Virus record (IMG/VR): IMGVR_UViG_3300037418_003103
DNA length: 64,000 nt
Reading direction: 5' to 3' (one strand)
Source: a virus
Lineage: Duplodnaviria; Heunggongvirae; Uroviricota; Caudoviricetes
Shown here piece after piece: positions 1-52,415 of this stretch; position 1 is the stretch's first letter, and each line of letters opens with the position of its first letter. The translations under genes were made by a program, and so were the position numbers. The notes under the pieces were generated by a model, which searched no databases, had not been told where the DNA came from, and saw only the letters and a program-made list of their open reading frames with translations.

Positions 1-236
1 CATTTTCAACCGCTTTCTTAGCTTTCTTGTATAAGAATTCTGACCTGTCGCCAGATTCTATTGCCCGTACCATATCAGTACACTCGATGCAGTCATCAAT
101 CATGGCCATAGATAGAAGAGCGTTTTTAGTAATAACCCTCATCTTAGCAATGAGTAGTGTCTTAACTTCTTCCCATCTCTTTTCATTCTCATCGAAGTTC
201 TGGGCGTACTGCCATGTTATCGTATTATTTTTCATT

Positions 237-1067
237 TTAGATCTTTGAGAATCGTTCATTATTTCTATCTCTTGCTTCTTTCAAGTAAGCAAGAATTTCA
301 GGTACATCTTCCTGTTCAAGACTTTCAATATACACACCCCTTGAAGCACCCTTGCGTGGATGAATGTACCATAATTGCAGGGCAACGCTCGCCTTTGGCT
401 CATCATATATCACCCCAGATTCACAGTGTTCACACTTACCCCAAATGCCCAAATGCTTCGCCCTTGCTTCAATACACACCCATCTGTTAATAGCATCGTG
501 TCCACCAAAGCCACCACGTTTTTCCTGGTTGTTTACTTCTTCGGCTGTTGGTAATTTAGGCATGGTAGATAGAGCAACTCTTTTACCATCCTTCCACTCC
601 ATCCAATTATTTGTGTCTTCATCAAAGTAAAATCTATCCATGCTAAAATGATGTAAGCGTCCTGCCTTAGCCAGTGCAAGCACTTCAACGTCAGTTATTT
701 TATCATGCCATTTTCTCCCTGTATACGCAAAATCGTACCAATCATCAGCAAGCTGTTTTGTTGCTTTATTTTGGCCTGAACCCTCGCACTCAGGACACTC
801 ATGATTCTTACGGTAAACCTCAAAGTAGAAATTAATCAGCTCATTAAGTTCATTCAAGTCCCATTTATGCTCCTTCCATGTGGGAGTAATTATACGGCCA
901 CTCCATCCAGACTCATTGCTCATAGAATCCTCGTAGCAACCCCAGCTGGTGTACTCAGGATTCTTTTTAAGCAGGTCAAGTTGCCAGTCATCAGCCTTTA
1001 AAGCATTTAATTCTTTCTGGTCGTCTTCGTCTATCTGACCGTCTTCGGTAGTGGGATAATTTCTCAT
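237..1067 (-). CDS. hypothetical protein with CPECEGSG zinc-ribbon-like motif
   Basis: 276-aa ORF; conserved promoter motif at 1089-1125 upstream; Cys pairs CxxC. Confidence 0.55.
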   Translation of the reverse strand: MRNYPTTEDGQIDEDDQKELNALKADDWQLDLLKKNPEYTSWGCYEDSMSNESGWSGRIITPTWKEHKWDLNELNELINFYFEVYRKNHECPECEGSGQNKATKQLADDWYDFAYTGRKWHDKITDVEVLALAKAGRLHHFSMDRFYFDEDTNNWMEWKDGKRVALSTMPKLPTAEEVNNQEKRGGFGGHDAINRWVCIEARAKHLGIWGKCEHCESGVIYDEPKASVALQLWYIHPRKGASRGVYIESLEQEDVPEILAYLKEARDRNNERFSKI

Positions 1068-1088
1068 TATTTTTCATTATTTTAGGAG

Positions 1089-1125
1089 TGCAAATATAAG
1101 ATTATTTTTTAAAAGAGCCAAATTG
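1089..1125 (-). promoter_or_regulatory. conserved Bacteroidetes-type promoter (-33 TTTG / -7 TAnnTTTG), phage motif copy
   Basis: tgcaaatataagattatt...ccaaattg on plus strand; reverse complement gives TTTG-N20-TATATTTG upstream of ATG at 1067. Confidence 0.55.
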
Positions 1126-1226
1126 TTATTTTTAAAGATTAAAAGATTGTGAATGGCTAATCAGTTAGTGTACCAGTTGAAATAGACTGAACAAACCACT
1201 GATTGTTCTTTTGAGGAAAAATACAG

Positions 1227-1355
1227 AGATGAGAGCAGGAGTCGAACCTGCAACCTATGAGTACACCGAGGGGCTTATTCCCGTCACCTCATAGCTGTGG
1301 ACTGCAGTAACCCAGATTAGACGTCTGGTGCCTCTACCAATTTGGCCATCTCATC
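1227..1355 (-). tRNA. tRNA-like gene (type II, Leu-like D-arm AATTGGTAGAG) with about 45-nt extra sequence
   Basis: 7/7 acceptor pairing GATGAGA/TCTCATC, T-arm GCAGG-TTCGACT-CCTGC, D-arm present; total 128 nt, too long for a normal tRNA; the anticodon could not be resolved. Confidence 0.5.
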
Positions 1356-1529
1356 TATAAAAGAAAACAGAAGCCCCGTTACAGTGATTACGAGAACCTC
1401 ACATTAGTTCTCTTCTTGTGACAGGAAACACCCATCCATGATCATCTCCTTCAAACATCAGTGTAACGACTGACCACCTTCGATTTAATACGAGACTGCG
1501 GTGTTGTTCTCCAGAGAACTTCTGTTTAG

Positions 1530-1618
1530 ATCCACATACAGGACTCGAACCTGTGACCTCTACTTAAAGGAATGACCCAATCGTTTCAGTGCTCTAACAC
1601 CAACTGAGCTAATGTGGA
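1530..1618 (-). tRNA. tRNA-like gene with about 15-nt extra sequence in the anticodon region
   Basis: acceptor TCCACAT/ATGTGGA 7/7, D-arm GCTC-AGTTGGTGTTA-GAGC, T-arm ACAGG-TTCGAGT-CCTGT, variable loop AGGTC; no intact anticodon stem could be found. Confidence 0.5.
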
Positions 1619-2037
1619 CTCCATAAAATCTCCTTTGTTTACAGTTGTAATAACAGTTTATTATGCCTTCACTGTTTTGCGGCATCTATATTACAACTGT
1701 TCACATTGGAAATTGATTACTAATAGGGTGGTTCATGAAAGCCTCACTGTACATACAGCAGCGTATCCCCTAATTAAACGTATACGTCCTATCTATAATC
1801 AAATAATTTATCCCTCTGCATACAATTGCAATACATTCCTCAACACCTGCGCAGGCAATTGTTACCTCAACTGATTGGTCACTGTACCAATTAAGTCTTT
1901 AGTGCTCAGTGTATAGTAATGAAAAGTGTATTGCAATTGCTCAATCCTTGGGAGCTGATTAATAGAAGCTATTTTGTAACTATGCTGTACTCCTTTCGGT
2001 ACATACAACTATGTCACTATTAATCAGGTAGTTTCAC

Positions 2038-2165
2038 ATCTTATGATAGGGCTCGAACCTATACTTGGTACCCGTTGTGACGCTTATTAAGCGAAGCAGT
2101 GCTATTTCCATACGCTTACTCTATTACTCACTCACGAATCGCTCTACCAATTGGGCAACATAAGA
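2038..2165 (-). tRNA. tRNA-like gene with about 45-nt extra sequence
   Basis: acceptor TCTTATG/CATAAGA 7/7, D-loop AATTGGTAGAG, T-arm ATAGG-TTCGAGC-CCTAT; middle segment is 78 nt where about 32 would be expected. Confidence 0.5.
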
Positions 2166-2303
2166 AGTCTTTATATCTACATTGAGATGATGCATTAATA
2201 CTATTTTTAATATCTGTTATTTTATCACTTAGTCTTCAATCAGTTTACGTCCATAACTAAGAGTGATAGGCAAATATACTACAATTAATTGAGACGGAAA
2301 AAT

Positions 2304-2552
2304 TTACTTTCGTAATGAATTAATAAATTTATCAACTTCCATTAGATTGGTGATGTCCTTCTTGAATGGATTTTCTCTGTAATGAAATTTTAAAAATTTT
2401 AACAAGAGAAATCGCATCTCATCTTCACTTATGGACATCGCAGTTTTATAAACCTTTTTAAACCAATCCCACTCTTTCTTTTGAAAAGAATCAGCCTTCG
2501 CGCCCAGCACTTCTTCTATCTCAGAATCAGGTACTTCTTCAAATTTTTTCAT
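2304..2552 (-). CDS. hypothetical protein
   Basis: 82-aa ORF in co-directional array. Confidence 0.45.
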   Translation of the reverse strand: MKKFEEVPDSEIEEVLGAKADSFQKKEWDWFKKVYKTAMSISEDEMRFLLLKFLKFHYRENPFKKDITNLMEVDKFINSLRK

Positions 2553-2571
2553 AACTAGTGTAATTTAGCAT

Positions 2572-3042
2572 TTAAAACCCATAGATTACTGAGACCACAT
2601 TATCATTAACTTTGATAGTTCCTATGTCGTCGAAGCTATCTCCTCTCCAACGGATGCTACCATTAAGAACCACACCCCACTTTTTAAAGAAGTTATTAAT
2701 CAGATATTCTAGCCACTCAACATAATTGTAGAATTTCTCTCCGCCATCCCACTCCAATTCACCATTATCATTGATGATCCATTGACACCATAATCCTGGC
2801 TGTGTCTTTGGTGGCGTATTGTAGTCAAGAACAGACCTATCTTCTATATCCTGATTGAAGAACTCACCCTCAACTCCATAATCCCCGTCCAGACTATGTT
2901 TTCCCTTGTAGAGTTCCTGTAATATATTTACATCTCTTTTCATCCTGCGTGATTCAGAAAACTGATTGATGTAAACGGTTTGCTTCATTGTAAGTGAAGG
3001 AGTAATTGAAAGACTGCCTTCAAAGTCGGTTGTGTAGCCCAT
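2572..3042 (-). CDS. hypothetical protein
   Basis: 156-aa ORF; promoter motif 3066-3102 lies 27 nt upstream of ATG. Confidence 0.55.
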   Translation of the reverse strand: MGYTTDFEGSLSITPSLTMKQTVYINQFSESRRMKRDVNILQELYKGKHSLDGDYGVEGEFFNQDIEDRSVLDYNTPPKTQPGLWCQWIINDNGELEWDGGEKFYNYVEWLEYLINNFFKKWGVVLNGSIRWRGDSFDDIGTIKVNDNVVSVIYGF

Positions 3043-3065
3043 TTCTATATTTTTAAGTAATTAAT

Positions 3066-3102
3066 AATGCAAATATAAGACTAATTTTTGATTCTACCAA
3101 AT
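3066..3102 (-). promoter_or_regulatory. conserved phage promoter motif copy
   Basis: tgcaaatataagactaatttttgattctaccaaattt. Confidence 0.55.
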
Positions 3103-3612
3103 TTATTTTAACTCATACAAGTGAAAACATATTACATATTGAAAATCATTCCCGAAATCTTCATCATCCAAGTATTCATGTTGTGGATTAAGTTTTCCTA
3201 TGTAAGTACCCCATTTATGCCAGCGCCAACCACCGCCCTTGCCTTTGTTTTCTTTATCTTGGTAAACAGGCGTCATGGTTAAAAAGAACTTCCGATTAGG
3301 ATCTTCCATTTCTTCTTTGAAATACTCTTTTAATTGGTCTACGCTGTCGGCCACCCCATATTGGGCTTTATTATAATCTGGTGCAAAGACTTCATAGGAA
3401 TTCTTAAATGGAATGCTGAAAACTCTCTCATCAATATTATATTCTATAAATTCATTGTATGAGAAATTGAAGTCTAAATTGCATTGATAAATGCCGTCGC
3501 CATACTCCATTAATCTTTCATCGCATTGAGGTATATACTTAAAGTTATTTTCCTCAGCAATCTTTTTCCTTCTTTCTATTTCTTTTCGATTTGGTGTTAA
3601 ATTTACAAACAT
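3103..3612 (-). CDS. hypothetical protein
   Basis: 169-aa ORF. Confidence 0.55.
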   Translation of the reverse strand: MFVNLTPNRKEIERRKKIAEENNFKYIPQCDERLMEYGDGIYQCNLDFNFSYNEFIEYNIDERVFSIPFKNSYEVFAPDYNKAQYGVADSVDQLKEYFKEEMEDPNRKFFLTMTPVYQDKENKGKGGGWRWHKWGTYIGKLNPQHEYLDDEDFGNDFQYVICFHLYELK

Positions 3613-3740
3613 AGTATTTTATTTTATGTTAGTTAATAGATATGCTTCCAATATGGCAGAACTAGTCGGATGGCTTATATAATCTCCATCAGCATCTACG
3701 TCAAGTACTTTGGTTGCTGCTTCTAATATCCACACGGATG

Positions 3741-3929
3741 TTATTTGTTTTCAAATTGTTCAACTTCTTCATAAGAAAGTATTTCCGTATTCGTGATTCT
3801 TTCACTTGCGCTCCTGTCAGGAAAATAAGAGAAGCTGTAATCCATGTTATTAATTATATCCTCAATTTCTTCACCTTCTTCCAGAATAGCTTCAATGTTG
3901 GCAGTGACCTTTAAAATAACTGTTTTCAT
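3741..3929 (-). CDS. hypothetical acidic small protein
   Basis: 62-aa ORF directly downstream of promoter copy 3945-3980. Confidence 0.45.
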   Translation of the reverse strand: MKTVILKVTANIEAILEEGEEIEDIINNMDYSFSYFPDRSASERITNTEILSYEEVEQFENK

Positions 3930-3944
3930 ACTTTTAATTTTTAT

Positions 3945-3980
3945 GCAAATATAAGACTAATTATTGAAACTACCAAATTA
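3945..3980 (-). promoter_or_regulatory. conserved phage promoter motif copy
   Basis: tgcaaatataagactaattattgaaactaccaaatt. Confidence 0.55.
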
Positions 3981-4790
3981 ATGTTTTTCTCTCTCAGCTT
4001 CCCTCTTGTATCCGTTTTTCCTATAAGGCGCTATGAAAACCACTCTTGTATCACCCCTTCCAACTCCAACATGCCTTAGTGCCAAGTGTCCACTAACGTC
4101 AAATCCCTCTGAACGAATATAAGTTACATTCCAGTCGGAATTGATAAGAATAAACTTCATATCCGTATTGTTAAGGATCTTTCCAGACTTCTGAGTGCCG
4201 TACCTTGAATTGGGTTGAACTTCCCTAACCTCCACTTCCGATAAGAATATAAAGCAGAGCAGGGCAAATACCTTATGCTCGAAGTATTCTATGTTATCAT
4301 CAAATTGATCCAGAATTACTTCTTCTCCACCCAATGCTCGAAGTTTATCATACTCACCCATTATGGAAAGGCCTGTGTCTAAATTTGCTCTCCATAAATT
4401 CCACTTGAATCCCAGCCAATTAAAATCCTTACCATCATAAACCTCTCCTTTAAAAAAGAAAATACCGACCTTTAGCGTATCTCCCACTCTTTTAATTCGC
4501 AGTATCTCATTATCTGGAAGAAGATAAGTCTTTGTAGATCCATCTATATGTTTCTTGAATATGCCATAATTGTATGGCTTCTTTAATTTAAGGAAGGATA
4601 GGCTTTTCATTACATTTGCAGATACAATGTATCTCTCACTATCCCCTAATAAAAAATTGTCCAGCTCTTTCTGAGGATCGGTTTCAGGTGTAATCAAATC
4701 TGTATAGGCCAGCAGGTGGTTAGCTATCACCCTTTGACGAAGTGACTGGTCTGCTAAAAATAACTTTCCTACATGATTATTAACTTTCAT
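3978..4790 (-). CDS. hypothetical protein
   Basis: 270-aa ORF; degenerate promoter 4793-4838 abuts ATG (leaderless). Confidence 0.55.
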   Translation of the reverse strand: MKVNNHVGKLFLADQSLRQRVIANHLLAYTDLITPETDPQKELDNFLLGDSERYIVSANVMKSLSFLKLKKPYNYGIFKKHIDGSTKTYLLPDNEILRIKRVGDTLKVGIFFFKGEVYDGKDFNWLGFKWNLWRANLDTGLSIMGEYDKLRALGGEEVILDQFDDNIEYFEHKVFALLCFIFLSEVEVREVQPNSRYGTQKSGKILNNTDMKFILINSDWNVTYIRSEGFDVSGHLALRHVGVGRGDTRVVFIAPYRKNGYKREAEREKH

Positions 4791-7611: not shown

Positions 7612-7642
7612 ATATAAGACTAATAGTTGAAAGTACCAAATT
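7607..7642 (-). promoter_or_regulatory. conserved phage promoter motif copy
   Basis: tgcaaatataagactaatagttgaaagtaccaaattt. Confidence 0.55.
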
Positions 7643-7917
7643 TATTTTATTTCAAGTTTTATGGAGATATCAATTAACCGCTCCAGAGACTGTGCATTCA
7701 GATTCCATTGGTAACCGAAGGCATCATACGCATGGCTATCGCTAACGTATTTGATTTCATCAATGTCCACCAGCATAACAGGAACATCGCTTATCTCCTT
7801 CTTCACGCCATGATGGTGAACATGATTTCCAATAGCGGTTATCAATCTATGCTTCATGTTCTTGTATTCGAGACTAAATGAATTATCCATAATATTTTGT
7901 TTTGTTGACGTTGCCAA
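7642..7917 (-). CDS. hypothetical protein (His-rich HVHHHG)
   Basis: 91-aa ORF. Confidence 0.45.
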   Translation of the reverse strand: MATSTKQNIMDNSFSLEYKNMKHRLITAIGNHVHHHGVKKEISDVPVMLVDIDEIKYVSDSHAYDAFGYQWNLNAQSLERLIDISIKLEIK

Positions 7918-7962
7918 ATTTATTTTGTTTAAGCATTTGATACTATCAATAATACATGTTTT

Positions 7963-8244
7963 TTATAAATCTAAATCCAGTGTGTATTCAAAATCCTCGG
8001 CGGGTATAGATAAGTACATGTCTTGTACCTTGCTAGCTAACTCACAATAATCAGTATTACTATCAGCTGACATCATCTTACGTTTGCCAGGTGCATTTAG
8101 GGTATTACTTGATGTGATCCCAATCCCTACATCTATTGCATCTATTCCAGCTCTCTGTAAGGCTCTGGTAATAGCACAATCGTATACATCCGTATAATTT
8201 GTTTCCTTAAAATCCTTCTTAAGAAAGTTTAGTTTTATATTCAT
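7963..8244 (-). CDS. hypothetical protein
   Basis: 93-aa ORF. Confidence 0.45.
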   Translation of the reverse strand: MNIKLNFLKKDFKETNYTDVYDCAITRALQRAGIDAIDVGIGITSSNTLNAPGKRKMMSADSNTDYCELASKVQDMYLSIPAEDFEYTLDLDL

Positions 8245-8256
8245 ATTTTTAATTTT

Positions 8257-8529
8257 TTAGATAAAATAGATATCGCTTGATGGCCTGTAACCATGCTTCT
8301 TTTCAAATGTCTCAATCAATTCTCTGGCAACTTTCTTGCTTTCATCATTTCTGAGATCAGTTTTATAGTCAGCGGAAGATACGTGTTCAAGCCATTTTAT
8401 ACAGAGCCTTGTAAAGGATTGTTGTTTTGTACGGTGTTCATGAGACATGACTTCATTGAACTCGTTTTGATTCAAACTGAATGAGCTTACAAATTCGGTA
8501 ATATCCTTAACTGTTTTCTGAGTGTCCAT
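8257..8529 (-). CDS. hypothetical protein
   Basis: 90-aa ORF; promoter 8590-8626 upstream. Confidence 0.5.
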   Translation of the reverse strand: MDTQKTVKDITEFVSSFSLNQNEFNEVMSHEHRTKQQSFTRLCIKWLEHVSSADYKTDLRNDESKKVARELIETFEKKHGYRPSSDIYFI

Positions 8530-8589
8530 TGTCTATATTTTGAATGAATAAAATTAAAGGAATCAAAGTCCTTTGTCAAACATTTAGAC

Positions 8590-8626
8590 TGCAAATATAA
8601 GACTAATAATTGGGAATACCAAATTT
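8590..8626 (-). promoter_or_regulatory. conserved phage promoter motif copy
   Basis: tgcaaatataagactaataattgggaataccaaattt. Confidence 0.55.
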
Positions 8627-8688
8627 ATTTATTATTGATTAATTGCGGTAACCGTATATCGTATCATAAGTATAAATTTATTTATACA

Positions 8689-8931
8689 TTAAAAAATACT
8701 TCGTATAGAATCTCCACCAGGATAGCACTGGATTTTAGTCACTTGCAAGTCCCTTCCTATATGCTCATGAATTTTTTCCTCTGAATTATTTTTAAGGATG
8801 CTGGAGAGCATTTCTTCTGCTTCTTTTATTGTCAGGTAGTTCCTACGATAATTATTGGTGAAGGCCAGTCCTCTCACTCCATCCTGTTTAATGGCTGTAA
8901 TACTGTAGCGAGTATGAGTTTTTATTTTCAT
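8689..8931 (-). CDS. hypothetical protein
   Basis: 80-aa ORF; promoter at 8934-8975. Confidence 0.5.
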   Translation of the reverse strand: MKIKTHTRYSITAIKQDGVRGLAFTNNYRRNYLTIKEAEEMLSSILKNNSEEKIHEHIGRDLQVTKIQCYPGGDSIRSIF

Positions 8932-8933
8932 AA

Positions 8934-9017
8934 TGCAAATATAGGTTTATAAATTAAATCTACCAACTTTAATTAAAAATAAATTTGGTACTTTCAATAA
9001 TTAGTCTTATATTTGCA
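8934..9017. promoter_or_regulatory. divergent promoter pair (strand-switch point)
   Basis: minus-type motif 8934-8975 and its reverse complement aaatttggtactttcaataattagtcttatatttgca 8981-9017 on the plus strand. Confidence 0.55.
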
Positions 9018-9032
9018 TTAAATTAATCAGGC

Positions 9033-9155
9033 ATGATAATCGATAGAAAGATAATGATACATCAATCCCACGAATATTCACATAGTGTAAAAATAATTTG
9101 TCAGAATAAAAAAATAGTCTTATATTTGCATATCGAAAATAACAACTCAATATAA
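9033..9155 (+). CDS. possible small ORF (40 aa)
   Basis: ATG 16 nt after plus promoter; contains the second plus promoter copy (9105-9135) within its 3' end. Confidence 0.2.
   Translation: MIIDRKIMIHQSHEYSHSVKIICQNKKIVLYLHIENNNSI
9105..9135 (+). promoter_or_regulatory. plus-strand promoter copy
   Basis: aatagtcttatatttgcatatcg with TTTG upstream. Confidence 0.45.
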
Positions 9156-9156
9156 A

Positions 9157-9450
9157 TTGGTATCATCAGAATTTTTTAGTAGTTTTGCATCAGATAAAAA
9201 CCATATCTTAAAAATGACCAACTACCAATGCACCAGTCTGGAGGCTAAGGAAAATAATATTGATCTGGAGCTTGAAGCCAAAGGCGCTGGAAACTGGGAG
9301 GCATTCAGAAGTTCACTGGGTCTTAGTAGCAAAGAGACTGAAATCCTACAACTCTGGATACATAAGAAAAACCTTGAATTTTATCATATGGGAATCAATA
9401 ACTTCAGAAATAGGGTAAGAGAGCTTCTCTTGTCGCCTGACGTTCAGTAG
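9157..9450 (+). CDS. hypothetical protein
   Basis: plus-strand ORF; the ORF-track start at 9157 is TTG; first ATG in frame near 9214 (MTNYQC...). Confidence 0.45.
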   Translation: MVSSEFFSSFASDKNHILKMTNYQCTSLEAKENNIDLELEAKGAGNWEAFRSSLGLSSKETEILQLWIHKKNLEFYHMGINNFRNRVRELLLSPDVQ

Positions 9451-9454
9451 GTGT

Positions 9455-9474
9455 CACAAATGTGTACATTTTAG
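9455..9474. promoter_or_regulatory. palindromic motif CACAAATGTGTACATTTTAG (copy 1)
   Basis: AAATGT/ACATTT inverted repeat immediately after the stop of ORF 9157-9450; identical copy at 9823-9842. Confidence 0.3.
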
Positions 9475-9496
9475 AGATTAAATAAACCCATGTTTT

Positions 9497-9685
9497 ATGA
9501 TTAACATAGCAGCTGTCATCATCGTATTTTTTATCTTTGGTGCCATTGACTTTATACTTAATTTAAACAATGCGAACCCAGAGGATGAACTGCAATTGGT
9601 AGAGCATTTTTTAAAGCTGACATTTTGGTGCCTAGTAGCTATTTTAATACTCTTTATAGCGAGCCACGGAGTCTTAACACCTTAA
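9497..9685 (+). CDS. small two-TM membrane protein
   Basis: 62-aa hydrophobic ORF on the plus strand. Confidence 0.4.
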   Translation: MINIAAVIIVFFIFGAIDFILNLNNANPEDELQLVEHFLKLTFWCLVAILILFIASHGVLTP

Positions 9686-9822
9686 CCAGATCCAATAAGT
9701 TTACGATAACTACTGTTTTGTATCAAGGTGGCCAGGATAAACCTGACCTGTTTACTCTGGATAATAAGTATATATCCTGAGAGCACCCAGTTATAATTTT
9801 GCCCGCATTAAGCTCCCCACCA

Positions 9823-9842
9823 CACAAATGTGTACATTTTAG
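9823..9842. promoter_or_regulatory. palindromic motif CACAAATGTGTACATTTTAG (copy 2)
   Basis: exact repeat of 9455-9474. Confidence 0.3.
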
Positions 9843-10303
9843 GGTCTATTTTTCCTTAGTTTATCGTAGAGGGTAATACTGAGTGTAAGGAGTACAACAA
9901 TAGCGAAGACGCATCCTGCAGCTGTTCCCAGGTCTACCTGGCCAATTTCAATTAGATTCATAAGAATTGTATTTATTTTGCAAAGATATTAATTATTTTA
10001 TAATCAACCAAATATTATACAAACTTTCTTTTATGATTATATGTCTTCTTTACATAGGATGTTGTATTCATAGAGTTATGGTTGATAATCCTGTCTTCTA
10101 GTATACCCTTGGCTGGATTCTTCTTTATGATCTGAACAGCCTTCTTCTTGCTGGTAAAGTTCTTATACATGAGCAATTTTTAATAAACATACTCAAATAT
10201 TTACAAAGAAACAACTTATGGCTGGAAATGAAAATATTATACTTGGCCAAAAGTAGGTAAAAATATGAGTTATGGCCCTGAATAAAAAAGAAGCGGGCTG
10301 TAT

Positions 10304-10366
10304 TACTTCTTTTTGCCTGTAGGAAATTTAAACTAAGAAATTAGTTTAAGGTTGATATTCAGTGAC
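10304..10366 (-). repeat. 62-bp repeat R1 with 9-bp hairpin TTAAACTAA/TTAGTTTAA and TTGATAnTCA
   Basis: tacttctttttgcctgtaggaaatttaaactaagaaattagtttaaggttgatattca. Confidence 0.6.
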
Positions 10367-10376
10367 TTATGACTTG

Positions 10377-10604
10377 CTACCATTCAATCAAGTATTCCAT
10401 ATACTCATAAGCAAAACTAACGTCAAAACCATCTTTGATCAGCATATCCTTTACCTCAGGAGTTATATGAGTTAATCTTAAGTTGAACCTACCAATCTTG
10501 GCATATTCACGTATCTTATTAGCAACGTCTAGGTACTCGGCATTGATTACCTTAGGACGGCTCTCCTTGGTAAGCTTATGTATTTCTTCTTTACTTATTC
10601 TCAT
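10377..10604 (-). CDS. hypothetical protein
   Basis: 75-aa ORF; ATG 4 nt downstream of repeat R2. Confidence 0.5.
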   Translation of the reverse strand: MRISKEEIHKLTKESRPKVINAEYLDVANKIREYAKIGRFNLRLTHITPEVKDMLIKDGFDVSFAYEYMEYLIEW

Positions 10605-10607
10605 AAT

Positions 10608-10668
10608 TACTTCTTTTTGCCCGTAGGAAATTTAAACTAATAAATTAGTTTAACATTGATAATCAAGG
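10608..10668 (-). repeat. 62-bp repeat R2
   Basis: ttctttttgcccgtaggaaatttaaactaataaattagtttaacattgataatcaa. Confidence 0.6.
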
Positions 10669-10670
10669 TG

Positions 10671-10868
10671 TTATTCATTTGTTGATGGAGCTGCATCTGC
10701 ATCAGTATAAGTAAGAGGTACAAATATTCCTCTTTCATTACTAGGATAGGAATAGTAGATCCATCCACCTGGTACCCGAAGGATATTTACATCTATACTT
10801 GATAAAAGGCCTGTACTAACACTTAACCTGGTTGTTTCATGCAGCTTTAGTTCGTATATATTTTTCAT
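10671..10868 (-). CDS. hypothetical protein
   Basis: 65-aa ORF; repeat R3 45 nt upstream. Confidence 0.45.
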   Translation of the reverse strand: MKNIYELKLHETTRLSVSTGLLSSIDVNILRVPGGWIYYSYPSNERGIFVPLTYTDADAAPSTNE

Positions 10869-10916
10869 AGGATAAACCTACTACTAATTTTTCAATGATA
10901 CAACTTCTCATCAGAA

Positions 10917-10977
10917 TACTTCTTTTTGCCTGTAGGAAATTTAAACTAAGTTTTTAGTTTAGCATTGATAATCAATT
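10917..10977 (-). repeat. 62-bp repeat R3
   Basis: cttctttttgcctgtaggaaatttaaactaagtttttagtttagcattgataatcaa. Confidence 0.6.
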
Positions 10978-10984
10978 ACTTATA

Positions 10985-11022
10985 AAAAAGACATGCTTAC
11001 CCTCTGCCAACTGAGCTACACA
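10985..11022 (-). pseudogene. tRNA 5'-half fragment (acceptor + D-arm only)
   Basis: the reverse complement reads GGATGTG-TA-GCTCAGTTGGCAGAGG; no matching T-arm or acceptor 3' strand within 150 nt. Confidence 0.35.
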
Positions 11023-11261
11023 TCCGATTAAAAGAACTAAAAATTAAACCTGTCACTTACCATCGTGAATAATTACCAATTCCCTTCACTCGATTATTAG
11101 TCGAACTACTAAGTTTGCACCTCTGGGTTCTTAATTATTATCTCTACATCAAACAACGCTATTGGTAATAGCTGTAAACCTTAACCTCCTTAGTATTTCT
11201 ACCTCGATTATGATTAATTTATTACTGTTTGACCTCAAGCAGGTTTAAAAGAACTAAATTT

Positions 11262-11300
11262 TGTATGCAGTGAAGGAGTTGAACCTCCTGGCCTTTTTGA
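11262..11300 (-). other. tRNA-like T-arm/acceptor fragment
   Basis: the reverse complement reads GGAGG-TTCAACT-CCTTC-ACTGCA; no convincing 5' half found. Confidence 0.25.
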
Positions 11301-11552
11301 TTGGAGAGTGAGGGGGTTAACCTTACTCACTTTACTAATACAATCAAATACTGCGCAGTATTTGATGCTTAAAAACCAATCAAAGTGTACTTCCCTTGTC
11401 ATTTTTACCTGTTCCGTCAAACAGAATGACTTATACTATACTGCACATCTAACTATTAGGCCACAAATATACTACTAATATTTTAAAAAACCAAAACAAT
11501 TCTAAATAACACAATTTCTGCATGCTAACACTCCCTGTGTTATTGAGCAAAA

Positions 11553-11664
11553 AATAAGACTATTTTTCAAAAAATAGTCTTAAAAATGTAAAAAAGCACC
11601 AAATATTATTTAGTCTTATTTTTGAGAGGGGTGTAAAATTAGTCTTAAATTTACAAAAAATTTG
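11553..11664. promoter_or_regulatory. cluster of four TAAGACTA/TAGTCTTA promoter-core motifs in an ORF-free region
   Basis: aataagactatttttcaaaaaatagtcttaaaaatg (palindromic pair), tagtcttatttttg, tagtcttaaattta; no ORF over 60 aa on either strand across 11460-12000. Confidence 0.4.
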
Positions 11665-12003
11665 ACTGAAGCATAATATTCACTTGCATAAATGGCTGTT
11701 TTTACATGTATTCAATTTTCATATCTAGCAGCATTAAACATTTTTTTACATGCCTCCAGTAAGCTAAATCCTGATGTAAAGAGACTTCTTATTACTCATT
11801 CCCAACACAAATTCCTACTTCTTCCCACTTTCCGTACCTCTCTACCACCTCTTTTTCTCTGCTCCTGATACTTCTAGCTCATTTTCCTCTAAGTACCTCT
11901 AGAAAGTCCATACGTGCTAATACAGGGTACAAAAGGTACACTTGCTTAATACCTGCCAGTCTGAGCAAGCTGTCCGTAATGGGGCTTAAAATGCGAAATA
12001 AGA

Positions 12004-12273
12004 CTACTCTCCTGATCTCTTACTCCCTCTCTTCTTCCTGGCCAGTCCCCTCTTTATTCTCCTGCTCCGCTCCTCCCGTATTGCCCCCATTGCCATCTCC
12101 GTCGGCCTAGCAAGGCCCAGCATAAGTTCATCTAGAGGCAGGCCCTCTCTTCTTGCATGTAGGTAGAGGAATATCCCCACCTTCCCCAGAGCCTCTCTAC
12201 CATCAAACTCCAGTAATTCCCTAAGTCCCTGATATAACTTCTCTTGTTCTTTATTTAATCCCTTGTTCTTCAT
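12004..12273 (-). CDS. hypothetical protein, basic C-terminus (GC-rich island)
   Basis: 89-aa ORF; local GC about 48% against about 33% for the window. Confidence 0.5.
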   Translation of the reverse strand: MKNKGLNKEQEKLYQGLRELLEFDGREALGKVGIFLYLHARREGLPLDELMLGLARPTEMAMGAIREERSRRIKRGLARKKRGSKRSGE

Positions 12274-12328
12274 ATGATTATTTTAATCCTCTTCTGCTTC
12301 TTTTTGATTGATGTGGTTCGGGATGTGA

Positions 12329-45896: not shown

Positions 45897-46242
45897 CTTG
45901 TACTATTTTTATAAGTTTACGCAAACAAGTAAGTTCAGCTTCTTCATAAGTTTTGAAGTGATTAATAGCAATACCATTATCTGTGTCAACAAAAGTTTGA
46001 TTGATTCGACCAACATATACTTCGGGTCCTTCTATTGGTTGTATAGGATATGAATTAAAACATAAGTTATATTTCTCCCTAAAAAATCTGAATGCTTGTT
46101 GATAAAGAGGAGCTGCTGTGGTAGATATATTGAAATAATTTACTAACTGCTTCTCAGAGTTGTAATATCTCATACAATTTTCTCTATAGCCCAATTCTTT
46201 TATTGCTAATGCTTCAGTAAATGGTATAAATTCTTTACTCAT
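45883..46242 (-). CDS. hypothetical protein
   Basis: 119-aa ORF. Confidence 0.5.
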   Translation of the reverse strand: MSKEFIPFTEALAIKELGYRENCMRYYNSEKQLVNYFNISTTAAPLYQQAFRFFREKYNLCFNSYPIQPIEGPEVYVGRINQTFVDTDNGIAINHFKTYEEAELTCLRKLIKIVQDGKK

Positions 46243-46846
46243 ACTTAAATTCTTTAATAATGAGATGATTGTTTCTATCTACTTTTGGTAGCAGATAAGG
46301 CTTATATTTATCCCACAGTTCATTCGCAGCGTTCCAATCAAATACTTTATCAAATGTTTCATCACTCATGAAATCTTTTGTGGTAGTCATAGCCACCAAA
46401 GCTGATGTAGGATATTTCTTGAGGGATTTTAAAATTCTTTTTTCAATTTCTCCTACCGATAATTTAGATTGTTTAGCTTGACCAAAAGATATTCTAATTG
46501 CATTCTTCATATCTTCTTCCGTATATCCTCCTGCTTTGTAACCTGCCATAAAATCTCTTCTTACAGAATCTTTGTAAATTGAGTCTTGTGTATAGTTGAT
46601 ATTCTTGTAATGAATATCAAATAGCTTTTCAACAGTATCATTTATTTCAAACAATGGAAGATTACTATCTTTTAAAGATTTAATACCTGTATGAGCTATG
46701 ATTTCAAATAGTTTATCTTCCTTCAATGAACCCTTAAACACTGGATTTGTTATTAGTCTTGCATCATCAGAAGGATTTTCTGGAATTTTAACTATTACAG
46801 CCCCACCATCAACCTGAATAATGGGATATTCTTTATATTGTTCCAT
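46235..46846 (-). CDS. hypothetical protein
   Basis: 203-aa ORF. Confidence 0.55.
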   Translation of the reverse strand: MEQYKEYPIIQVDGGAVIVKIPENPSDDARLITNPVFKGSLKEDKLFEIIAHTGIKSLKDSNLPLFEINDTVEKLFDIHYKNINYTQDSIYKDSVRRDFMAGYKAGGYTEEDMKNAIRISFGQAKQSKLSVGEIEKRILKSLKKYPTSALVAMTTTKDFMSDETFDKVFDWNAANELWDKYKPYLLPKVDRNNHLIIKEFKYE

Positions 46847-47369
46847 AATTAAAATTTTTAAAAGATTTAAATAAAGAAATTATGTTCTCTTTCCCAACAG
46901 GGTTCATGCTATGCACAAAATATTCTGGTAAGGTTTTGTTATGTTCTATAACATAATCAATCAACCATTGTGCACAATGATAGCCTGTTTTATTCATATC
47001 CACTTCAAAACTATCACCCTTATAATTTAATACACCGTTCTGCATGTTGGAATGGTAGTGCCCATCTGCCAAGTCATGGTCAAAGGATATAACATTAGGA
47101 ATTCCGTTATCGGTAATATACTTAACGAAAGCTGGATAATTCCTTACAATAACCCACTCATACACCCTGTACTGTTTTCTTAACTCAACTGGATTTATAT
47201 AGTTTCCAACCTCATAAGGCTGTCTAATATCATCCAAAAACAATCTATACATCGTAATACTTTTTATCTTATTTCCAAATTGATTTGGGTTCAGATGGAA
47301 TAATATCGGTATCGTCAGTCTTATAACTACCCCGCATCCATTTATATTTACCATCATATACTGCCTCAC
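46833..47369 (-). CDS. hypothetical protein
   Basis: 178-aa ORF. Confidence 0.5.
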   Translation of the reverse strand: MRQYMMVNINGCGVVIRLTIPILFHLNPNQFGNKIKSITMYRLFLDDIRQPYEVGNYINPVELRKQYRVYEWVIVRNYPAFVKYITDNGIPNVISFDHDLADGHYHSNMQNGVLNYKGDSFEVDMNKTGYHCAQWLIDYVIEHNKTLPEYFVHSMNPVGKENIISLFKSFKNFNYGTI

Positions 47370-49940: not shown

Positions 49941-51974
49941 TTATAGGTAACTTGAAACGCTCTCTAGTGTTGTATTTTCATCGAATACCAAGTCAGCCTC
50001 CTCAACGGATTCAACTACTTCACCTGATATCGCGTTTAAGATATGGCCCTGATTAATCTTATCCCATTTAATGCTTGAATCTCCTGAGTCAAGAGTAACA
50101 AAGGTTTTTAAGAAACTCCTCATTTTAATAGCATCAGACTTATTAGACACCATCGCAGAACCCATGGCCATGTCAAGAAATACAAGACTTCTAGTAGGAA
50201 TATGTAGAGCCTGTAAGTAAGCCGTTTCTCCTTCATTTTCAAGAACCATTGCGTGTTCAACAGTTTCAGGTAACCAATGAGAATTAGCCTCTGGATATTT
50301 TCTAAGCATCCAGCCAACCTTTGTCTTTGGTTTAAATTTACTGTAACTTGAAGGACCTCTGAATATTCTAGCTTCGGTTATCACCCATTCGGTATTTTTA
50401 GGCAACTTACCGACCTCTATGTCAAGGTATTCAGCATTTTGAGATGAATGCCCTGTATTATCTCCAGAGTAAACAATTGCAGACCCCATGTGATGGCTGC
50501 CATTCCAGCCAACCTTTACAAAGTTATTATCACTTCCCAGCACAAGTGCAGATAAATCAATATCATGCCTACCATGCCAATGAACATACATCCTGATAGT
50601 CTTTCCCTCAGGTATAACCTCAACAGTGCCTTTAACTTTCCCATCAAGTGACAAAGACGACGCTCTATTATTCATCCCCAGAGGTCTGTAGTATAGCGCT
50701 CTATCAATGAATACCTTCTTATTTTTAAGATCATCACGTTTCATACTTCTTACTCGATCAAGAATTAAAGTTTTAATCTCATTCACAAGATTTGCATCAA
50801 GAGGCACAAGTGAGTCATAAGTAACAACATTTGATTTAGAAGCAGAAGCAAGAATCGCTCCTCGGCCTTCCTGTTCTTTATCTCTGTCAGTAAAGTGATT
50901 ATAAGCCGTCGCTAATGAAGATAGACTTTCATTTCCATCAAGCCATACATTAATAGCTTTAATACCGAACACCCTTACACAATGGTCAAGCCTACGTGTG
51001 AACGCGCCTGGTCTTTTCTTAAGAAGTTCCAATACACTTGCGTCATTTTTACCCAACAGTTCTTCAACTCTTGAATTGAATGTGCGTAATTCCTTAGGTT
51101 TATTTCTAAGAAGATTAGCATATTTAAAGAGGTTAGGATAGCGTTTTGCATTATCCTTTGTTAAGGGATTAAGATAGAATAATAGTCTAAGAAATTTCTC
51201 GCGATACACCTTGAACGCTTCTTCCAAATTATAGGAAGCATCAAGAGTCGCTGAAAGAACCTTAACGTGTCTCCTGGTAGGTTTTTTAAATTTGGTATTC
51301 TCCTTCAGACCTTCATCTCCACCAGAGAAAGCAGAATAGATTCTGAGCACACTAACCGCATCTCTGGTAGGAAGTACGTTAATGCTTTCGTCATTAAGAA
51401 GTCTCTTACCAACGTAAGCAGCAGTCTCCTTAAATTTAATATCAGAAAAATTGAACTTCACACCTTCGTGAATAAAGTCATCAATAATTTGTTTATCAAA
51501 CTTGCTGATAGAAGTTGTAGATGAAAGAATATCCGTAAAGATGCTATCAAACTGAGATTTTGAGAGAAGGCTTATATTTTTGTATTTTACAGGTTCAAGC
51601 TTAAATTCTCTTTCCAGATAGCCAGCGTCCTCAGGCCTCCAATTACCAAAACTCCAATAATGCAGTATTGCGTTTACGGCAAACTCAAGGTATGACATAG
51701 CAAGTACAGACTGAGGGAAATTACGATAAATGGGTTCAAATTTACTACCATCACCCAGGACCTTTTGAATGCCCTTCATAAGGTCATTATAAACTTCGGT
51801 AAGTGTTTCTTCACTTTGAACACTAAGGCGATCAAATAAATCTTTTGTCACCACGTAGCCATACTTCATTAATTCGTGATTAATTTGGTGCGCTAGTGCT
51901 TCATTGTTGTTATCTGAGCTAGGCAGCTCCAGATATAATCCCTTTCTCTTTTGGAAGGAAATGAAATGCTTCAT
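49941..51974 (-). CDS. large protein with C-terminal TerD-like domain
   Basis: 677-aa ORF; VKVGWNGSHHMGSAIVYSGDNTGHSSQNAEYLDIEVGKLPKNTEWVITEARIF matches the TerD GDN..G / E.i.vdL signature. Confidence 0.55.
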   Translation of the reverse strand: MKHFISFQKRKGLYLELPSSDNNNEALAHQINHELMKYGYVVTKDLFDRLSVQSEETLTEVYNDLMKGIQKVLGDGSKFEPIYRNFPQSVLAMSYLEFAVNAILHYWSFGNWRPEDAGYLEREFKLEPVKYKNISLLSKSQFDSIFTDILSSTTSISKFDKQIIDDFIHEGVKFNFSDIKFKETAAYVGKRLLNDESINVLPTRDAVSVLRIYSAFSGGDEGLKENTKFKKPTRRHVKVLSATLDASYNLEEAFKVYREKFLRLLFYLNPLTKDNAKRYPNLFKYANLLRNKPKELRTFNSRVEELLGKNDASVLELLKKRPGAFTRRLDHCVRVFGIKAINVWLDGNESLSSLATAYNHFTDRDKEQEGRGAILASASKSNVVTYDSLVPLDANLVNEIKTLILDRVRSMKRDDLKNKKVFIDRALYYRPLGMNNRASSLSLDGKVKGTVEVIPEGKTIRMYVHWHGRHDIDLSALVLGSDNNFVKVGWNGSHHMGSAIVYSGDNTGHSSQNAEYLDIEVGKLPKNTEWVITEARIFRGPSSYSKFKPKTKVGWMLRKYPEANSHWLPETVEHAMVLENEGETAYLQALHIPTRSLVFLDMAMGSAMVSNKSDAIKMRSFLKTFVTLDSGDSSIKWDKINQGHILNAISGEVVESVEEADLVFDENTTLESVSSYL

Positions 51975-51988
51975 ATATAAAAATTTAG

Positions 51989-52110
51989 TGGGGAAGGGTG
52001 GAATCGAACCACCGACGCGGCCATTAAAAGTGGAGTAAGTTAAAATATGTTATCACAGAGATAAAATCATCTCAACTAATTACCTGCTCTACCAACTGAG
52101 CTACTTCCCC
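51989..52110 (-). tRNA. tRNA-Lys(TTT) interrupted by a 49-nt insertion (52034-52082) in the 5' strand of the anticodon stem
   Basis: acceptor GGGGAAG/CTTCCCC, D-arm GCTC-AGTTGGTA-GAGC, T-arm GGTGG-TTCGATT-CCACC; removing the insert gives a canonical 73-nt tRNA with anticodon stem GGCCA/TGGCC and loop CTTTTAA. Confidence 0.65.
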
Positions 52111-52134
52111 GAAAAAAAAAAGCTATATAATCAA

Positions 52135-52183
52135 ATGAAGTGTGTTTTTTATCAATTAAAGTAACTTCATTTATGTTACAGCT
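52135..52183. repeat. hairpin element copy 1 (ATGAAGT...ACTTCAT, conserved loop TTTTTATCAATTAAAGT)
   Basis: 7-bp stem; paralogue at 52286-52340 has compensatory stem changes. Confidence 0.45.
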
Positions 52184-52285
52184 TAAAGAACTAAAACATT
52201 AATAATCTGCTGGAGTATGTTTTCAAATAAAGGTTGTAGTAACTCCAACAATGTTCAATGTTTATTATATTAAAAGTGATAATCA

Positions 52286-52340
52286 GACGAAGTGGTTGTT
52301 TTTATCAATTAAAGTTTAGTAACTTCGTCTATGTTCACTC
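52286..52340. repeat. hairpin element copy 2 (GACGAAGT...ACTTCGTC)
   Basis: 8-bp stem; same conserved loop core. Confidence 0.45.
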
Positions 52341-52415
52341 TTGTTTTTTATTATGATGCAAATATACCAAATATTTTTTAAATAACCAACTTATTTTTAT
52401 TTTTTATTTACATTT

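Follow-up and report, generated by a model that had tools for sequence, protein, structure and literature searches.

Background

To our knowledge, introns in bacterial tRNA genes have been held to be exclusively self-splicing group I elements, which are about 200 nucleotides (nt) or more in length, possess a catalytic core and are sited in the anticodon loop. The tRNA introns of archaea and eukaryotes include short elements of some tens of nt that are spliced by proteins (EndA/TSEN endonucleases together with RtcB), and in Crenarchaeota, red algae and nucleomorphs such introns are also found at sites in the anticodon stem, including those between positions 28 and 29 and between positions 29 and 30. 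Here we analyze a window of 64 kilobases (kb), out of a 345-kb contig of a virus of the class Caudoviricetes (IMG/VR record IMGVR_UViG_3300037418_003103), which encodes a set of irregular tRNA-like genes, here termed units A, B, C and D. The clearest of these, D, is a tRNA-Lys gene in which the 5' strand of the anticodon stem is split by a structured insert, and its relatives in other phages and in bacteria define a family of inserts that is apparently undescribed. We believe that these genes represent a new variant, either protein-dependent tRNA introns or tRNA-like partners of a ribonucleoprotein, in organisms where only group I tRNA introns have been established.

Among phages, Devoto et al. 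(2019) described "enigmatic introns" in the tRNAs of the Lak megaphages of Prevotella (PMC6784885). Three of these, in the tRNAs for Tyr, Phe and Thr, are inserts of 79-114 nt at the canonical site between positions 37 and 38 (PMC6784885, Table S6); the Tyr and Phe inserts hold a T-arm-like GGUUCGA, and the Thr insert was proposed to encode a tRNA (PMC6784885). In the literature that we searched the Lak "enigmatic introns" were the only short inserts in phage tRNAs to be found, and no paper linked bacterial RtcB operons to split tRNA genes. Among bacteria, the Y RNAs YrlA and YrlB occur with Ro60/Rsr in loci of the rsr-yrlBA-rtcBA type (Chen et al. 2014, PMC4201824), and the YrlA of M. smegmatis undergoes cleavage by RNase P and CCA addition (PMC4201824).

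A tRNA-Lys gene with a split anticodon stem

Neither the Rfam tRNA covariance model (RF00005; gathering score 29, with positions 1-4000 also searched at E<=10) nor ARAGORN found an ordinary, uninterrupted tRNA in the 64-kb window. Unit D (Table 1) was read with an enumerator, in which every single-segment deletion between tRNA position 26 and the T stem is made and the restored anticodon arm is scored. This yielded a unique maximal excision of 49 nt between positions 28 and 29, which leaves GGCCA CUUUUAA UGGCC followed by the variable loop GCGUC, i.e. a tRNA-Lys(UUU). When the region was shuffled 2000 times and scored under strict class I rules, 4 shuffles reached the score of this excision. 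A contiguous anticodon arm is absent from both D and C as long as nothing is excised. ARAGORN labels D as "tRNA-Stop(tta)", a call that we reject: the program can place introns only in the anticodon loop, and the comparative data specify Lys(UUU).

Table 1. Positions of the tRNA-like units, their parts and associated features in the window
Feature	Coordinates	Strand	Basis
Unit D, tRNA-Lys(UUU), 5' strand of anticodon stem split	51989..52110	minus	Rfam, 48.6 bits
Insert of D, 49 nt	52034..52082	minus	manual segmentation alongside 13 relatives
Three hairpin repeats of about 80 nt between promoter and D	52130..52340	minus	
Unit A, tRNA-like, 129 nt, canonical T arm	1227..1355	minus	Rfam tRNA, 44.4 bits
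Hairpin at the anticodon position of A, CCAGA CGUCUAA UCUGG, perfect (5 bp, 7-nt loop)	1312..1328	minus	Rfam alignment, enumerator
Surplus of A, 60 nt, between hairpin and T stem	1252..1311	minus	
Unit B, tRNA-like, 89 nt, canonical acceptor, D and T arms	1530..1618	minus	Rfam tRNA, 44.9 bits
Unit C, tRNA-like, 128 nt, canonical T arm	2038..2165	minus	ARAGORN with introns allowed
C, reading i: 45-nt insert between positions 28 and 29	2094..2138	minus	enumerator, maximum score 15
C, reading ii: 53-nt insert between positions 32 and 33	2081..2133	minus	enumerator, score 13
SCO0854/MXAN_6230-family RING protein, 677 amino acids, C-terminal TerD fold	49941..51974	minus	NCBIfam RING_SCO0854, 3.5e-40
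cRec (cREC_REC) protein	46833..47369	minus	Pfam PF20274, 4.3e-21
Promoter-like motif TATATTTG (Bacteroidetes -7 consensus TAnnTTTG)	52359-52366, 2271-2278, 1091-1098	minus	

The insert of D comprises, from its 5' end, a tail UAAUU, a helix P1, a junction AUU, a helix P2, a junction CA and a 3' tail UACU. P1 (52068-52077 with 52038-52047) is paired at 10 of 10 positions and P2, a hairpin at 52050-52064, at 5 of 5. In an orthologous locus that is 78% related, L048, the counterpart of D (3435-3557) is split at the same place by a near-identical insert, in which P1 differs from that of D by a compensatory change from U-A to C-G. The anticodon loop of this ortholog reads UUGUUAA (GUU, Asn) and its discriminator base is U, as against CUUUUAA (UUU, Lys) and A in D, which amounts to a switch of tRNA identity between close relatives.

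Each of the three hairpin repeats that lie upstream of D has the form AACAU-N9-UACU-loop-N9'-GAUUAU, and the insert of D ends at its 3' side in the same 18-nt motif, AACAU-N9-UACU. The window holds six minus-strand matches to this motif, four of which fall within 52034-52335. Comparable hairpin repeats are kept upstream of the homolog of the protein gene that follows D (see below) in two other loci (L048 3200-3430, L049 4935-5000), one of which lacks a tRNA.

The insert family and its distribution

Relatives of D were sought with a pattern that constrained the D arm, the anticodon loop of tRNA-Lys and the beginning of the T arm and left everything else free. Split Lys genes were thereby found in many viral contigs of 350-370 kb in IMG/VR, with the insert always between positions 28 and 29, and the separated parts of the anticodon stem co-vary across it (GG..CCA/UGGCC, GG..ACA/UGUCC, CG..ACA/UGUCG, CG..AGC/GCUCG and CG..GUC/GACCG), as do the acceptor and T stems of these genes. 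BLAST searches of GenBank recovered the split Lys gene from cultured jumbo phages, namely Cronobacter phage GAP32, Pectobacterium phage CBB and Serratia phage BF, and further from Erwinia phage pEa_SNUABM_12 and its relatives, Kaldavass and XbC2, the hosts of the set being Enterobacterales and Xanthomonas. Other tRNAs that are split in these phages, with the site of the insert in brackets, are Glu(UUC) (28/29), those of the Tyr(GUA) type (30/31 or 31/32) and Ile(GAU) (27/28 or 28/29), and some belong to class II. The tRNAs of the cultured jumbo phages are mostly intact and only a few are split, intact Lys and Glu genes coexisting with split ones.

A scan of bacterial genome and metagenome-assembled contigs in GTDB, with one genome per species, recovered split Lys genes from Bacteroidota (Bacteroidales, Taishania, a 590-kb Raineya scaffold and Flavobacteriales) and from Firmicutes, including the isolate Ruminococcus flavefaciens FD-1 (ACOK01000095), while a split-tRNA locus of Myxococcota was reached through homologs of the 677-amino-acid (aa) protein encoded after D. 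In these bacterial loci all the tRNAs that we detected are split and lie in clusters of two to four. Removal of the inserts gives back Glu(UUC) (insert at 28/29), Asp(GUC) (29/30), Tyr(GUA) (31/32) and Pro (about 33/34). Across the Glu, Tyr, Ile, Asp and Pro relatives the restored anticodon arms are canonical, with scores of 14-15, and the position of the insert differs among tRNA species but is constant within one species. The initial annotation of the window had placed the surplus sequence between the D and T arms and had proposed an intron or insertion phenomenon on the scale of the genome. The location stands, with the refinement that most inserts of the family fall within the stem or the loop of the anticodon arm (28/29, 29/30, 31/32 and about 33/34); the wider phenomenon is likewise supported by D and its relatives, whereas its extension to whole genomes fails on the mostly intact tRNAs of the cultured phages.

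The inserts of the family are structured hairpins of 44-54 nt with co-varying stems. Two types can be distinguished. In phages of Gammaproteobacteria and in Firmicutes the insert has a co-varying hairpin, in many cases GAUUC..GAAUC, and continues with UUA-CAGCAAC and a short tail. In the type found in Bacteroidota and Myxococcota, P1 and P2 are accompanied by conserved junctions (..AUU and CAA), and a UUACUUC tail precedes the 3' junction. For ten relatives of the Bacteroidota type RNAalifold predicted 12 pairs, 8 of which show compensatory changes, and when 14 members including D were segmented manually the pairing was full or almost full in all. The nucleotides at the splice junctions are not conserved, G|UA being common but not universal. 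By inspection, D fits the architecture of P1, P2 and tail; A has only a hairpin and then GUUACU, and B and C do not fit.

Several known kinds of element were considered for the inserts and set aside. The inserts share with group I introns their placement in the anticodon region of bacterial-type tRNA genes, but those considered in the window (13-60 nt) are too small for this class, and no group I intron (Intron_gpI) or ribozyme model matched over the 64 kb at gathering thresholds or over positions 1-4000 at E<=10. Hammerhead, pistol, twister and hairpin ribozymes were rejected on the lack of a conserved core and of any Rfam match at E<=10 over a four-tRNA locus. A bulge-helix-bulge intron was rejected for D, the only unit in which this motif was looked for, by hand: G28|U, the 5' junction, falls within a helix, and a 4-bp helix with 3-nt bulges cannot be drawn. 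Pairing of the insert tail, in a U1-like manner, with the acceptor stem, D loop, T loop or 5' junction showed no consistent co-variation when followed by hand. An RNase III-like stagger of 2 nt, also assessed by hand, suits the junctions of D but not those of the L002 or L010 type.

The inserts resemble the protein-spliced introns of archaea and eukaryotes in being short and not self-splicing, in their anticodon-stem sites, in affecting several tRNAs per genome, and in the presence of RtcB beside split tRNAs at a bacterial locus. They differ from them in occurring in bacteria and phages, in the want of a drawable bulge-helix-bulge in D and in their conserved two-helix architecture and 3' tail. 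No EndA-type endonuclease domain was detected among the 91 open reading frames (ORFs) of the 64-kb window. With the Lak introns (PMC6784885) they share overlong phage tRNAs, the lack of an Rfam match, Bacteroidota hosts and the restriction to some tRNAs only. Unlike those, the inserts of the present family measure 44-54 nt, lie mostly in the anticodon stem and have a P1-P2 hairpin with a UUACUUC tail; those of the window in particular are shorter, are placed elsewhere and contain no GGUUCGA. The window moreover uses the standard genetic code and the Lak phages code 15.

Genes linked to the split tRNAs

The gene for the 677-aa protein, a RING and TerD protein of the SCO0854/MXAN_6230 family (Table 1), begins 15 nt after D on the same strand, and BLASTP relates its product to locus L024 (7e-17). 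Among Bacteroidota-type loci found by pattern, a homolog of this protein follows right after the tRNAs in four of five, the fifth (L028) ending before its downstream gene. When the search started from the protein, split tRNAs stood directly upstream in two of three loci, and the third has a hairpin element that shares the 3' motif of the insert. The AlphaFold model of the protein (predicted local distance difference test, pLDDT, of 81) matches solved structures in Foldseek solely in the C-terminal TerD domain, and a nuclease or TROVE fold was rejected on this result; nor was a TROVE domain found among the window ORFs.

RtcB genes occur near split tRNAs, in one case right after the RING/TerD gene (4e-84) and in another upstream (7e-28). 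Bacteroidota-type loci also carry divergent WYL-WCX regulators, a HEPN neighbor is seen in one locus only, the HEPN and RtcB genes being in different Bacteroidota loci, and Hen1_N and RlaP genes lie near one phage homolog of the 677-aa protein. In Firmicutes, two loci (L043 1191-3315 and L037 3860-6013) have three clustered split tRNAs and then a gene for a DUF2828+DUF7788 protein, and the DUF2828 protein gave no match in PDB-sequence searches. Other split-tRNA clusters of Firmicutes adjoin topoisomerase or alanyl-tRNA synthetase genes. The splicing of XBP1/HAC1 mRNA by Ire1, a HEPN/KEN RNase, and RtcB offers a conceptual parallel only: a metal-independent RNase acts there at two structured sites and RtcB ligates, and HEPN and RtcB are also encoded beside split tRNAs here, but the substrates here are tRNAs and not an mRNA, and a link of HEPN to cutting would be purely analogical.

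The same linkage bears on the main rival explanation, in which the inserts are retained. The genes would then encode a bipartite non-coding RNA, a tRNA body with a protein-binding hairpin set into its anticodon stem, as a partner, bait or decoy of the protein encoded next to it, i.e. the SCO0854 RING/TerD protein in Bacteroidota, Myxococcota and the window phage and the DUF2828+DUF7788 protein in Firmicutes. By analogy with Ro60 and Y RNA, the tRNA body might provide processing, stability and mimicry for a role within RNA-damage sensing or repair, and the exposed Lys, Glu, Asp, Asn and Tyr anticodon loops might be bait for anticodon nucleases. We regard this as possible but rather unlikely. 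A tight, same-strand linkage of an RNA to one protein family is the criterion by which YrlA was found beside Ro60 (PMC4201824), and the conserved AUU and CAA of the internal loop, together with the UUACUUC tail, resemble a protein site rather than a splice signal; the splice-junction nucleotides and insert positions are unconserved. Moreover, the repeats upstream of the protein gene carry the 3' motif of the insert even at the locus that is devoid of tRNAs, and CBB tRNA15, with an intact insert and a degenerate anticodon loop, would fit a non-decoding role better; loops without U33 also occur in A and some relatives. Against this, excision restores textbook tRNAs, with U33, R37 and 5-nt variable loops, in most of the solved cases, which would be needless in a scaffold, and the anticodon remains canonical even where its identity shifts, as between UUU in the window and GUU in L048. 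Furthermore, Rak2-like phages have split genes within ordinary tRNA arrays, and a tblastn search found no SCO0854 homolog there.

In several respects the split genes recall YrlA: both are tRNA-like RNAs whose genes share a strand with that of a specific RNA-binding protein and lie a few kb from it at most, both have RtcB neighborhoods, and both occur in phages too. However, the ends of YrlA form a protein-binding stem, whereas those of the present RNAs pair in an ordinary acceptor stem, and the anticodon stem-loop is complete; the partner, too, is the SCO0854 RING/TerD protein and not a recognized TROVE protein. The Rfam YrlA model (RF02553) has no match in the window, and a match in L028 (24.9 bits, against a gathering score of 69) was discarded, for it runs from the T arm of one tRNA into the D arm of the following one. 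YrlA matches that span a pair of tRNAs are a known type of false positive (PMC4201824).

The window phage does encode one recognizable candidate for RNA-end repair, the cRec protein (Table 1), whose family was predicted by Iyer et al. to open 2',3'-cyclic phosphate ends and was linked to RNA ligases (PMC7824862). Its gene is the only RNA-end-repair gene recognized in the window and is tightly packed between ORFs at 47269-47997 and 46235-46846, the products of which have no match in Pfam, PHROG, NCBIfam or PDB-sequence searches and could be ligase or kinase partners of cRec.

The units A, B and C

The initial annotation had described A, B and C as three minus-strand tRNA-like units with 7/7 complementary acceptor strands, textbook D- and T-loops and a length beyond that of any normal tRNA, and most of this description bears scrutiny. 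The units themselves were recovered, A and B by the Rfam model and C by ARAGORN with introns allowed, although Rfam does not report C even at E<=10. Reading of the sequence bears out the 7/7 acceptor stems (A GAUGAGA/UCUCAUC, B UCCACAU/AUGUGGA, C UCUUAUG/CAUAAGA) and, in each unit, a 5-bp T stem with the textbook loop GGUUCGA. The D-loops are also as described, the D arm being normal in A and B, though the D stem of C has one C.A mismatch. At 129 and 128 nt A and C exceed any normal tRNA, but the 89 nt of B lie within the class II range. In all three the surplus falls between position 26 and the T stem (1252-1311 in A, 1560-1589 in B and 2081-2138 in C), position 73 is U, and B and C begin with U1-A72. 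On these features A, B and C are genuine but irregular tRNA-type genes, for none of which could any single excision be established. They appear to be of the same general kind as D, and we infer the same maturation route for them.

Unit A has a Leu-type D arm (3-bp stem, loop AAAUUGGUAGA) and, at the anticodon position, a perfect hairpin (Table 1). If this hairpin is kept and the surplus in the variable region removed, the resulting score is reached by 52 of 2000 shuffles and a G at position 33 persists. The surplus opens with GUUACU (1306-1311), the motif that ends the insert of D and marks the hairpin repeats upstream of D, and includes a hairpin at 1255-1294 closed by 7 bp (CUAUGAG/CUCAUAG). 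The hairpin at the anticodon position is either a real but aberrant anticodon arm (UCU), accompanied by an insert in the variable region, or a mimic borne by the insert; the latter is considered because in D a pseudo-stem borne by the insert at the same place misleads Rfam. The best alternative excision, CC|31 nt|GCU AUGAGGU GACGG, gives a loop like that of Leu GAG, with one mismatch and a variable region of 29 nt.

Unit B is the only one that ARAGORN calls over the 64 kb in its bacterial default mode, as a "tRNA-???" with an unassignable "anticodon" of 2 bases. The program folds the stretch that stands in place of a normal anticodon arm (1560-1589) into a stem of 3 bp and two A.G pairs with a 6-nt loop and a variable arm CCUUU AAGU AGAGG. 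A non-canonical anticodon arm is therefore a better description of this unit, given its class II length, than an interruption, and the view that every tRNA-like gene of the window is interrupted, while correct as to their irregularity, is too strong for B. The suggestion that CTTTAAG, which is located at 1563-1569 in B, forms the anticodon loop of an ochre suppressor is not supported. The best reading of the arm, CUUUC CUUUAAG UAGAG, leaves a variable loop of 3 nt and has a score of 9.0, the median of the null being 10, so that the stem is no better than those of shuffled sequences. Nor is there any sign of recoding: no strand-specific gain of ORFs was seen for TAG, TGA or TAA, and the lengthening of ORFs upon TAA reassignment is equal on the non-coding strand, as AT-rich DNA predicts.

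Unit C has two competing excision solutions (Table 1). Reading i gives the perfect stem GACGC UUAAUAA GCGUC, with a score reached by 42 of 2000 shuffles in a relaxed search; it is disfavored by the anticodon AAU, the absence of nucleotide 26 and an unstructured variable region of 16 nt. Reading ii gives AUUCG UUCACAA CGGGU, i.e. Val(CAC), with a variable loop of 7 nt, and reading by hand likewise allows an insert at 32/33 in a class II gene of the family (L012 4134-4262).

These ambiguities raise the question of whether A, B and C are decaying pseudogenes, or genes disrupted by small mobile DNA, with D as the only functional unit. The lack of a canonical solution for B, the G33 and the unclassifiable 60-nt region of A, the conflicting solutions for C and the unusual ends (U73 in all three, U1-A72 in B and C) are in line with decay. 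So is the lack of detectable relatives: pattern scans of viral contigs gave zero matches, and the DNA of 1000-2500 has no match among known phages. The gene downstream of the three units encodes a 276-aa protein that is unrelated to the SCO0854 family and has 479 homologs; three related loci have no tRNAs nearby, and their neighboring ORFs are not homologous. That a homolog with 70% identity has no tRNA island beside it also favors this explanation. Neutral decay would, on the other hand, be expected to erode first the perfect acceptor stems, the 5-bp T stems and the consensus T- and D-loops that are in fact kept. The units C, B and A further form a 1.2-kb island on one strand behind a Bacteroidetes-type promoter motif, with no minus-strand ORF of at least 50 aa between 1068 and 2303, and clusters in which all tRNAs are irregular are the rule in related loci. 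Against disruption by mobile DNA, no target-site duplications or terminal repeats flank the inserts. On balance we hold the loss of function of A, B and C to be improbable.

The spacers of the island suggest another possibility, in which the tRNA-like units act as punctuation: RNase P and RNase Z would release the structured spacers of 419 nt (C-B) and 174 nt (B-A) as functional RNAs, and the anticodon region would thereby be free to vary. The C-B spacer (1619-2037, minus strand) does have a folding z of -4.9, with 0 of 100 shuffles folding as well, and contains a perfect inverted repeat of 11 bp (1955-1965 with 2017-2027) as well as one of 20 nt (1823-1842 with 1920-1939), and it may be an independent RNA. 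The conserved parts of the tRNA-like units are, moreover, exactly those needed by RNase P. Yet the B-A spacer is not unusually structured (z of -1.5), neither spacer matches any Rfam family, and the perfect anticodon arms restored in D and in many relatives would be left unexplained, so that punctuation strikes us as a most improbable account of the units.

Possible maturation of the split tRNAs

We favor, with a confidence that falls a little short of even, the reading that A, B, C and D are pre-tRNAs that are matured by an endonuclease and RNA-repair ligation into working tRNAs. RNase P and 3' processing would trim the split transcripts like those of any tRNA. A protein endonuclease, and not the RNA itself, would then excise the insert, probably with 2',3'-cyclic-phosphate and 5'-OH ends as the result; it would be guided by the tRNA body, by the conserved hairpin and tail, or by both. 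The halves would be rejoined by an RNA-repair ligase, which could be RtcB where this is present, and in the window phage possibly by a heal-and-seal route that includes the cRec protein. The split in D, its conservation, the architecture of the insert and the gene linkage are established from the sequences, and from these we infer the removal of the insert and the enzymes responsible for it.

Several observations weigh against this reading. The case for excision comes solely from the canonical tRNAs that it restores, and the co-variation of positions 27-28 with 42-43 would also fit a three-way junction in which the insert is retained, so that sequence cannot separate the two models. B has no excision solution above those of shuffled sequence, the loop of A has G33 in place of the near-universal U33, U33 is absent in any reading of L012 4134-4262 and of the first tRNA of L050, and CBB tRNA15 retains its insert but has an "anticodon loop" of 10 nt. 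A covariance model, R1, made from 10 Bacteroidota-type inserts and run with filters off over the whole window, had its best match at 13.8 bits (E=3) and none within A, B, C or D. As R1 misses the insert of D, which fits by manual segmentation only, we regard D as a divergent member of the family; the same model matches nothing in A, B or C, and relatives of these three were not found in the collections searched. Finally, a search of the 91 window ORFs recovered neither RtcB nor an EndA-type enzyme nor any other ligase, and the N-terminal 440 aa of the 677-aa protein have no fold match in Foldseek.

If maturation by excision and ligation is accepted, the tRNA species affected give a hint as to its purpose. 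Split genes have been found overall for Lys, Glu, Asp, Asn, Tyr, Ile and Pro, which are largely targets of anticodon nucleases: PrrC acts on tRNA-Lys, colicin E5 on those for Tyr, His, Asn and Asp, and gamma-toxin on those for Glu, Lys and Gln. The tRNAs for Lys and Glu carry wobble bases of the xm5s2U34 type and those for Asp, Asn and Tyr queuosine. This pattern suggests that the module would be a reserve supply of tRNAs, coupled to an RNA-repair response. A more inclusive proposition is that bacteria and phages possess a protein-dependent tRNA splicing, in which inserts are excised and the halves rejoined in the manner of RtcB, the SCO0854 RING/TerD or DUF2828 protein is the factor for recognition or cleavage, and spare tRNAs are made only under a repair response; taken as a whole we consider this possible but less likely than not.

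The natural substrates of bacterial RtcB remain debated. If the inserts are spliced, they would provide both an instance of protein-catalyzed tRNA splicing in bacteria and a natural splicing substrate for bacterial RtcB; if they are retained, they would point to a new tRNA-based ribonucleoprotein in RNA-damage responses. Their presence in cultured phages of Enterobacterales and in three bacterial phyla offers tractable systems, and they are of relevance to the conflict of phages and hosts over tRNAs and to the annotation of split tRNAs in GenBank.

Genomic context and further observations

The window is AT-rich, with about 33% G+C, and its genes lie essentially all on the minus strand. Their content is phage-like, with Dam, DUF932, Band_7 and Metallophos proteins and many that are recognized by PHROG only. 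This content and the small number of tandem repeats led us to reject an origin from a Borg or another archaeal element. Copies of TATATTTG stand upstream of the D island, the C-B-A island and the gene for the 276-aa protein, and the TAnnTTTG motifs ahead of non-coding islands suggest that the host is probably a member of Bacteroidota. A region of 4.7 kb (7612-12328) is free of ORFs of at least 100 aa on both strands, and with a relaxed threshold ARAGORN reports within it a "tRNA-Trp" with a 111-nt intron (11263-11446), a call of low confidence.

The split tRNA-Lys gene looks like a case of systematic mis-annotation. In GAP32 (JN882285 / NC_019401) it lies at 306871-306993 under a coding sequence labeled "putative membrane protein" or "hypothetical protein", and in other GenBank records the same split gene is labeled tRNA-Lys, tRNA-Ser, tRNA-Phe or tRNA-OTHER. 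In CBB (KU574722) split genes for Glu and Lys are located at 295724-295837 and 297425-297546, respectively, and the paper on the CBB genome does not mention its long tRNAs as split. The "tRNA-Ser AGA" of CBB (L019 15001-15120) is a positional homolog of the split Lys gene with a typical insert (hairpin and CAGCAAC), in which a stem CGUGC/GCACG surrounds a 10-nt loop AUAUAUGAAA, and it may be a non-decoding derivative.

In another viral contig, of 363 kb (IMGVR_UViG_3300028833_000055; L012 1-10636), 39 tRNA genes are packed within 10.6 kb, and ARAGORN places introns in five of them, namely Lys, Ile, a Leu-like class II tRNA, Trp and a "Met" call with 3 nt. The insert of the Trp(CCA) gene lies 3' of the anticodon, and its 5' end, ACAGAGUAAGG, is similar to that of the Phe intron of a Lak phage, ACAGAGUAAAC, hinting at a possible third type of insert.

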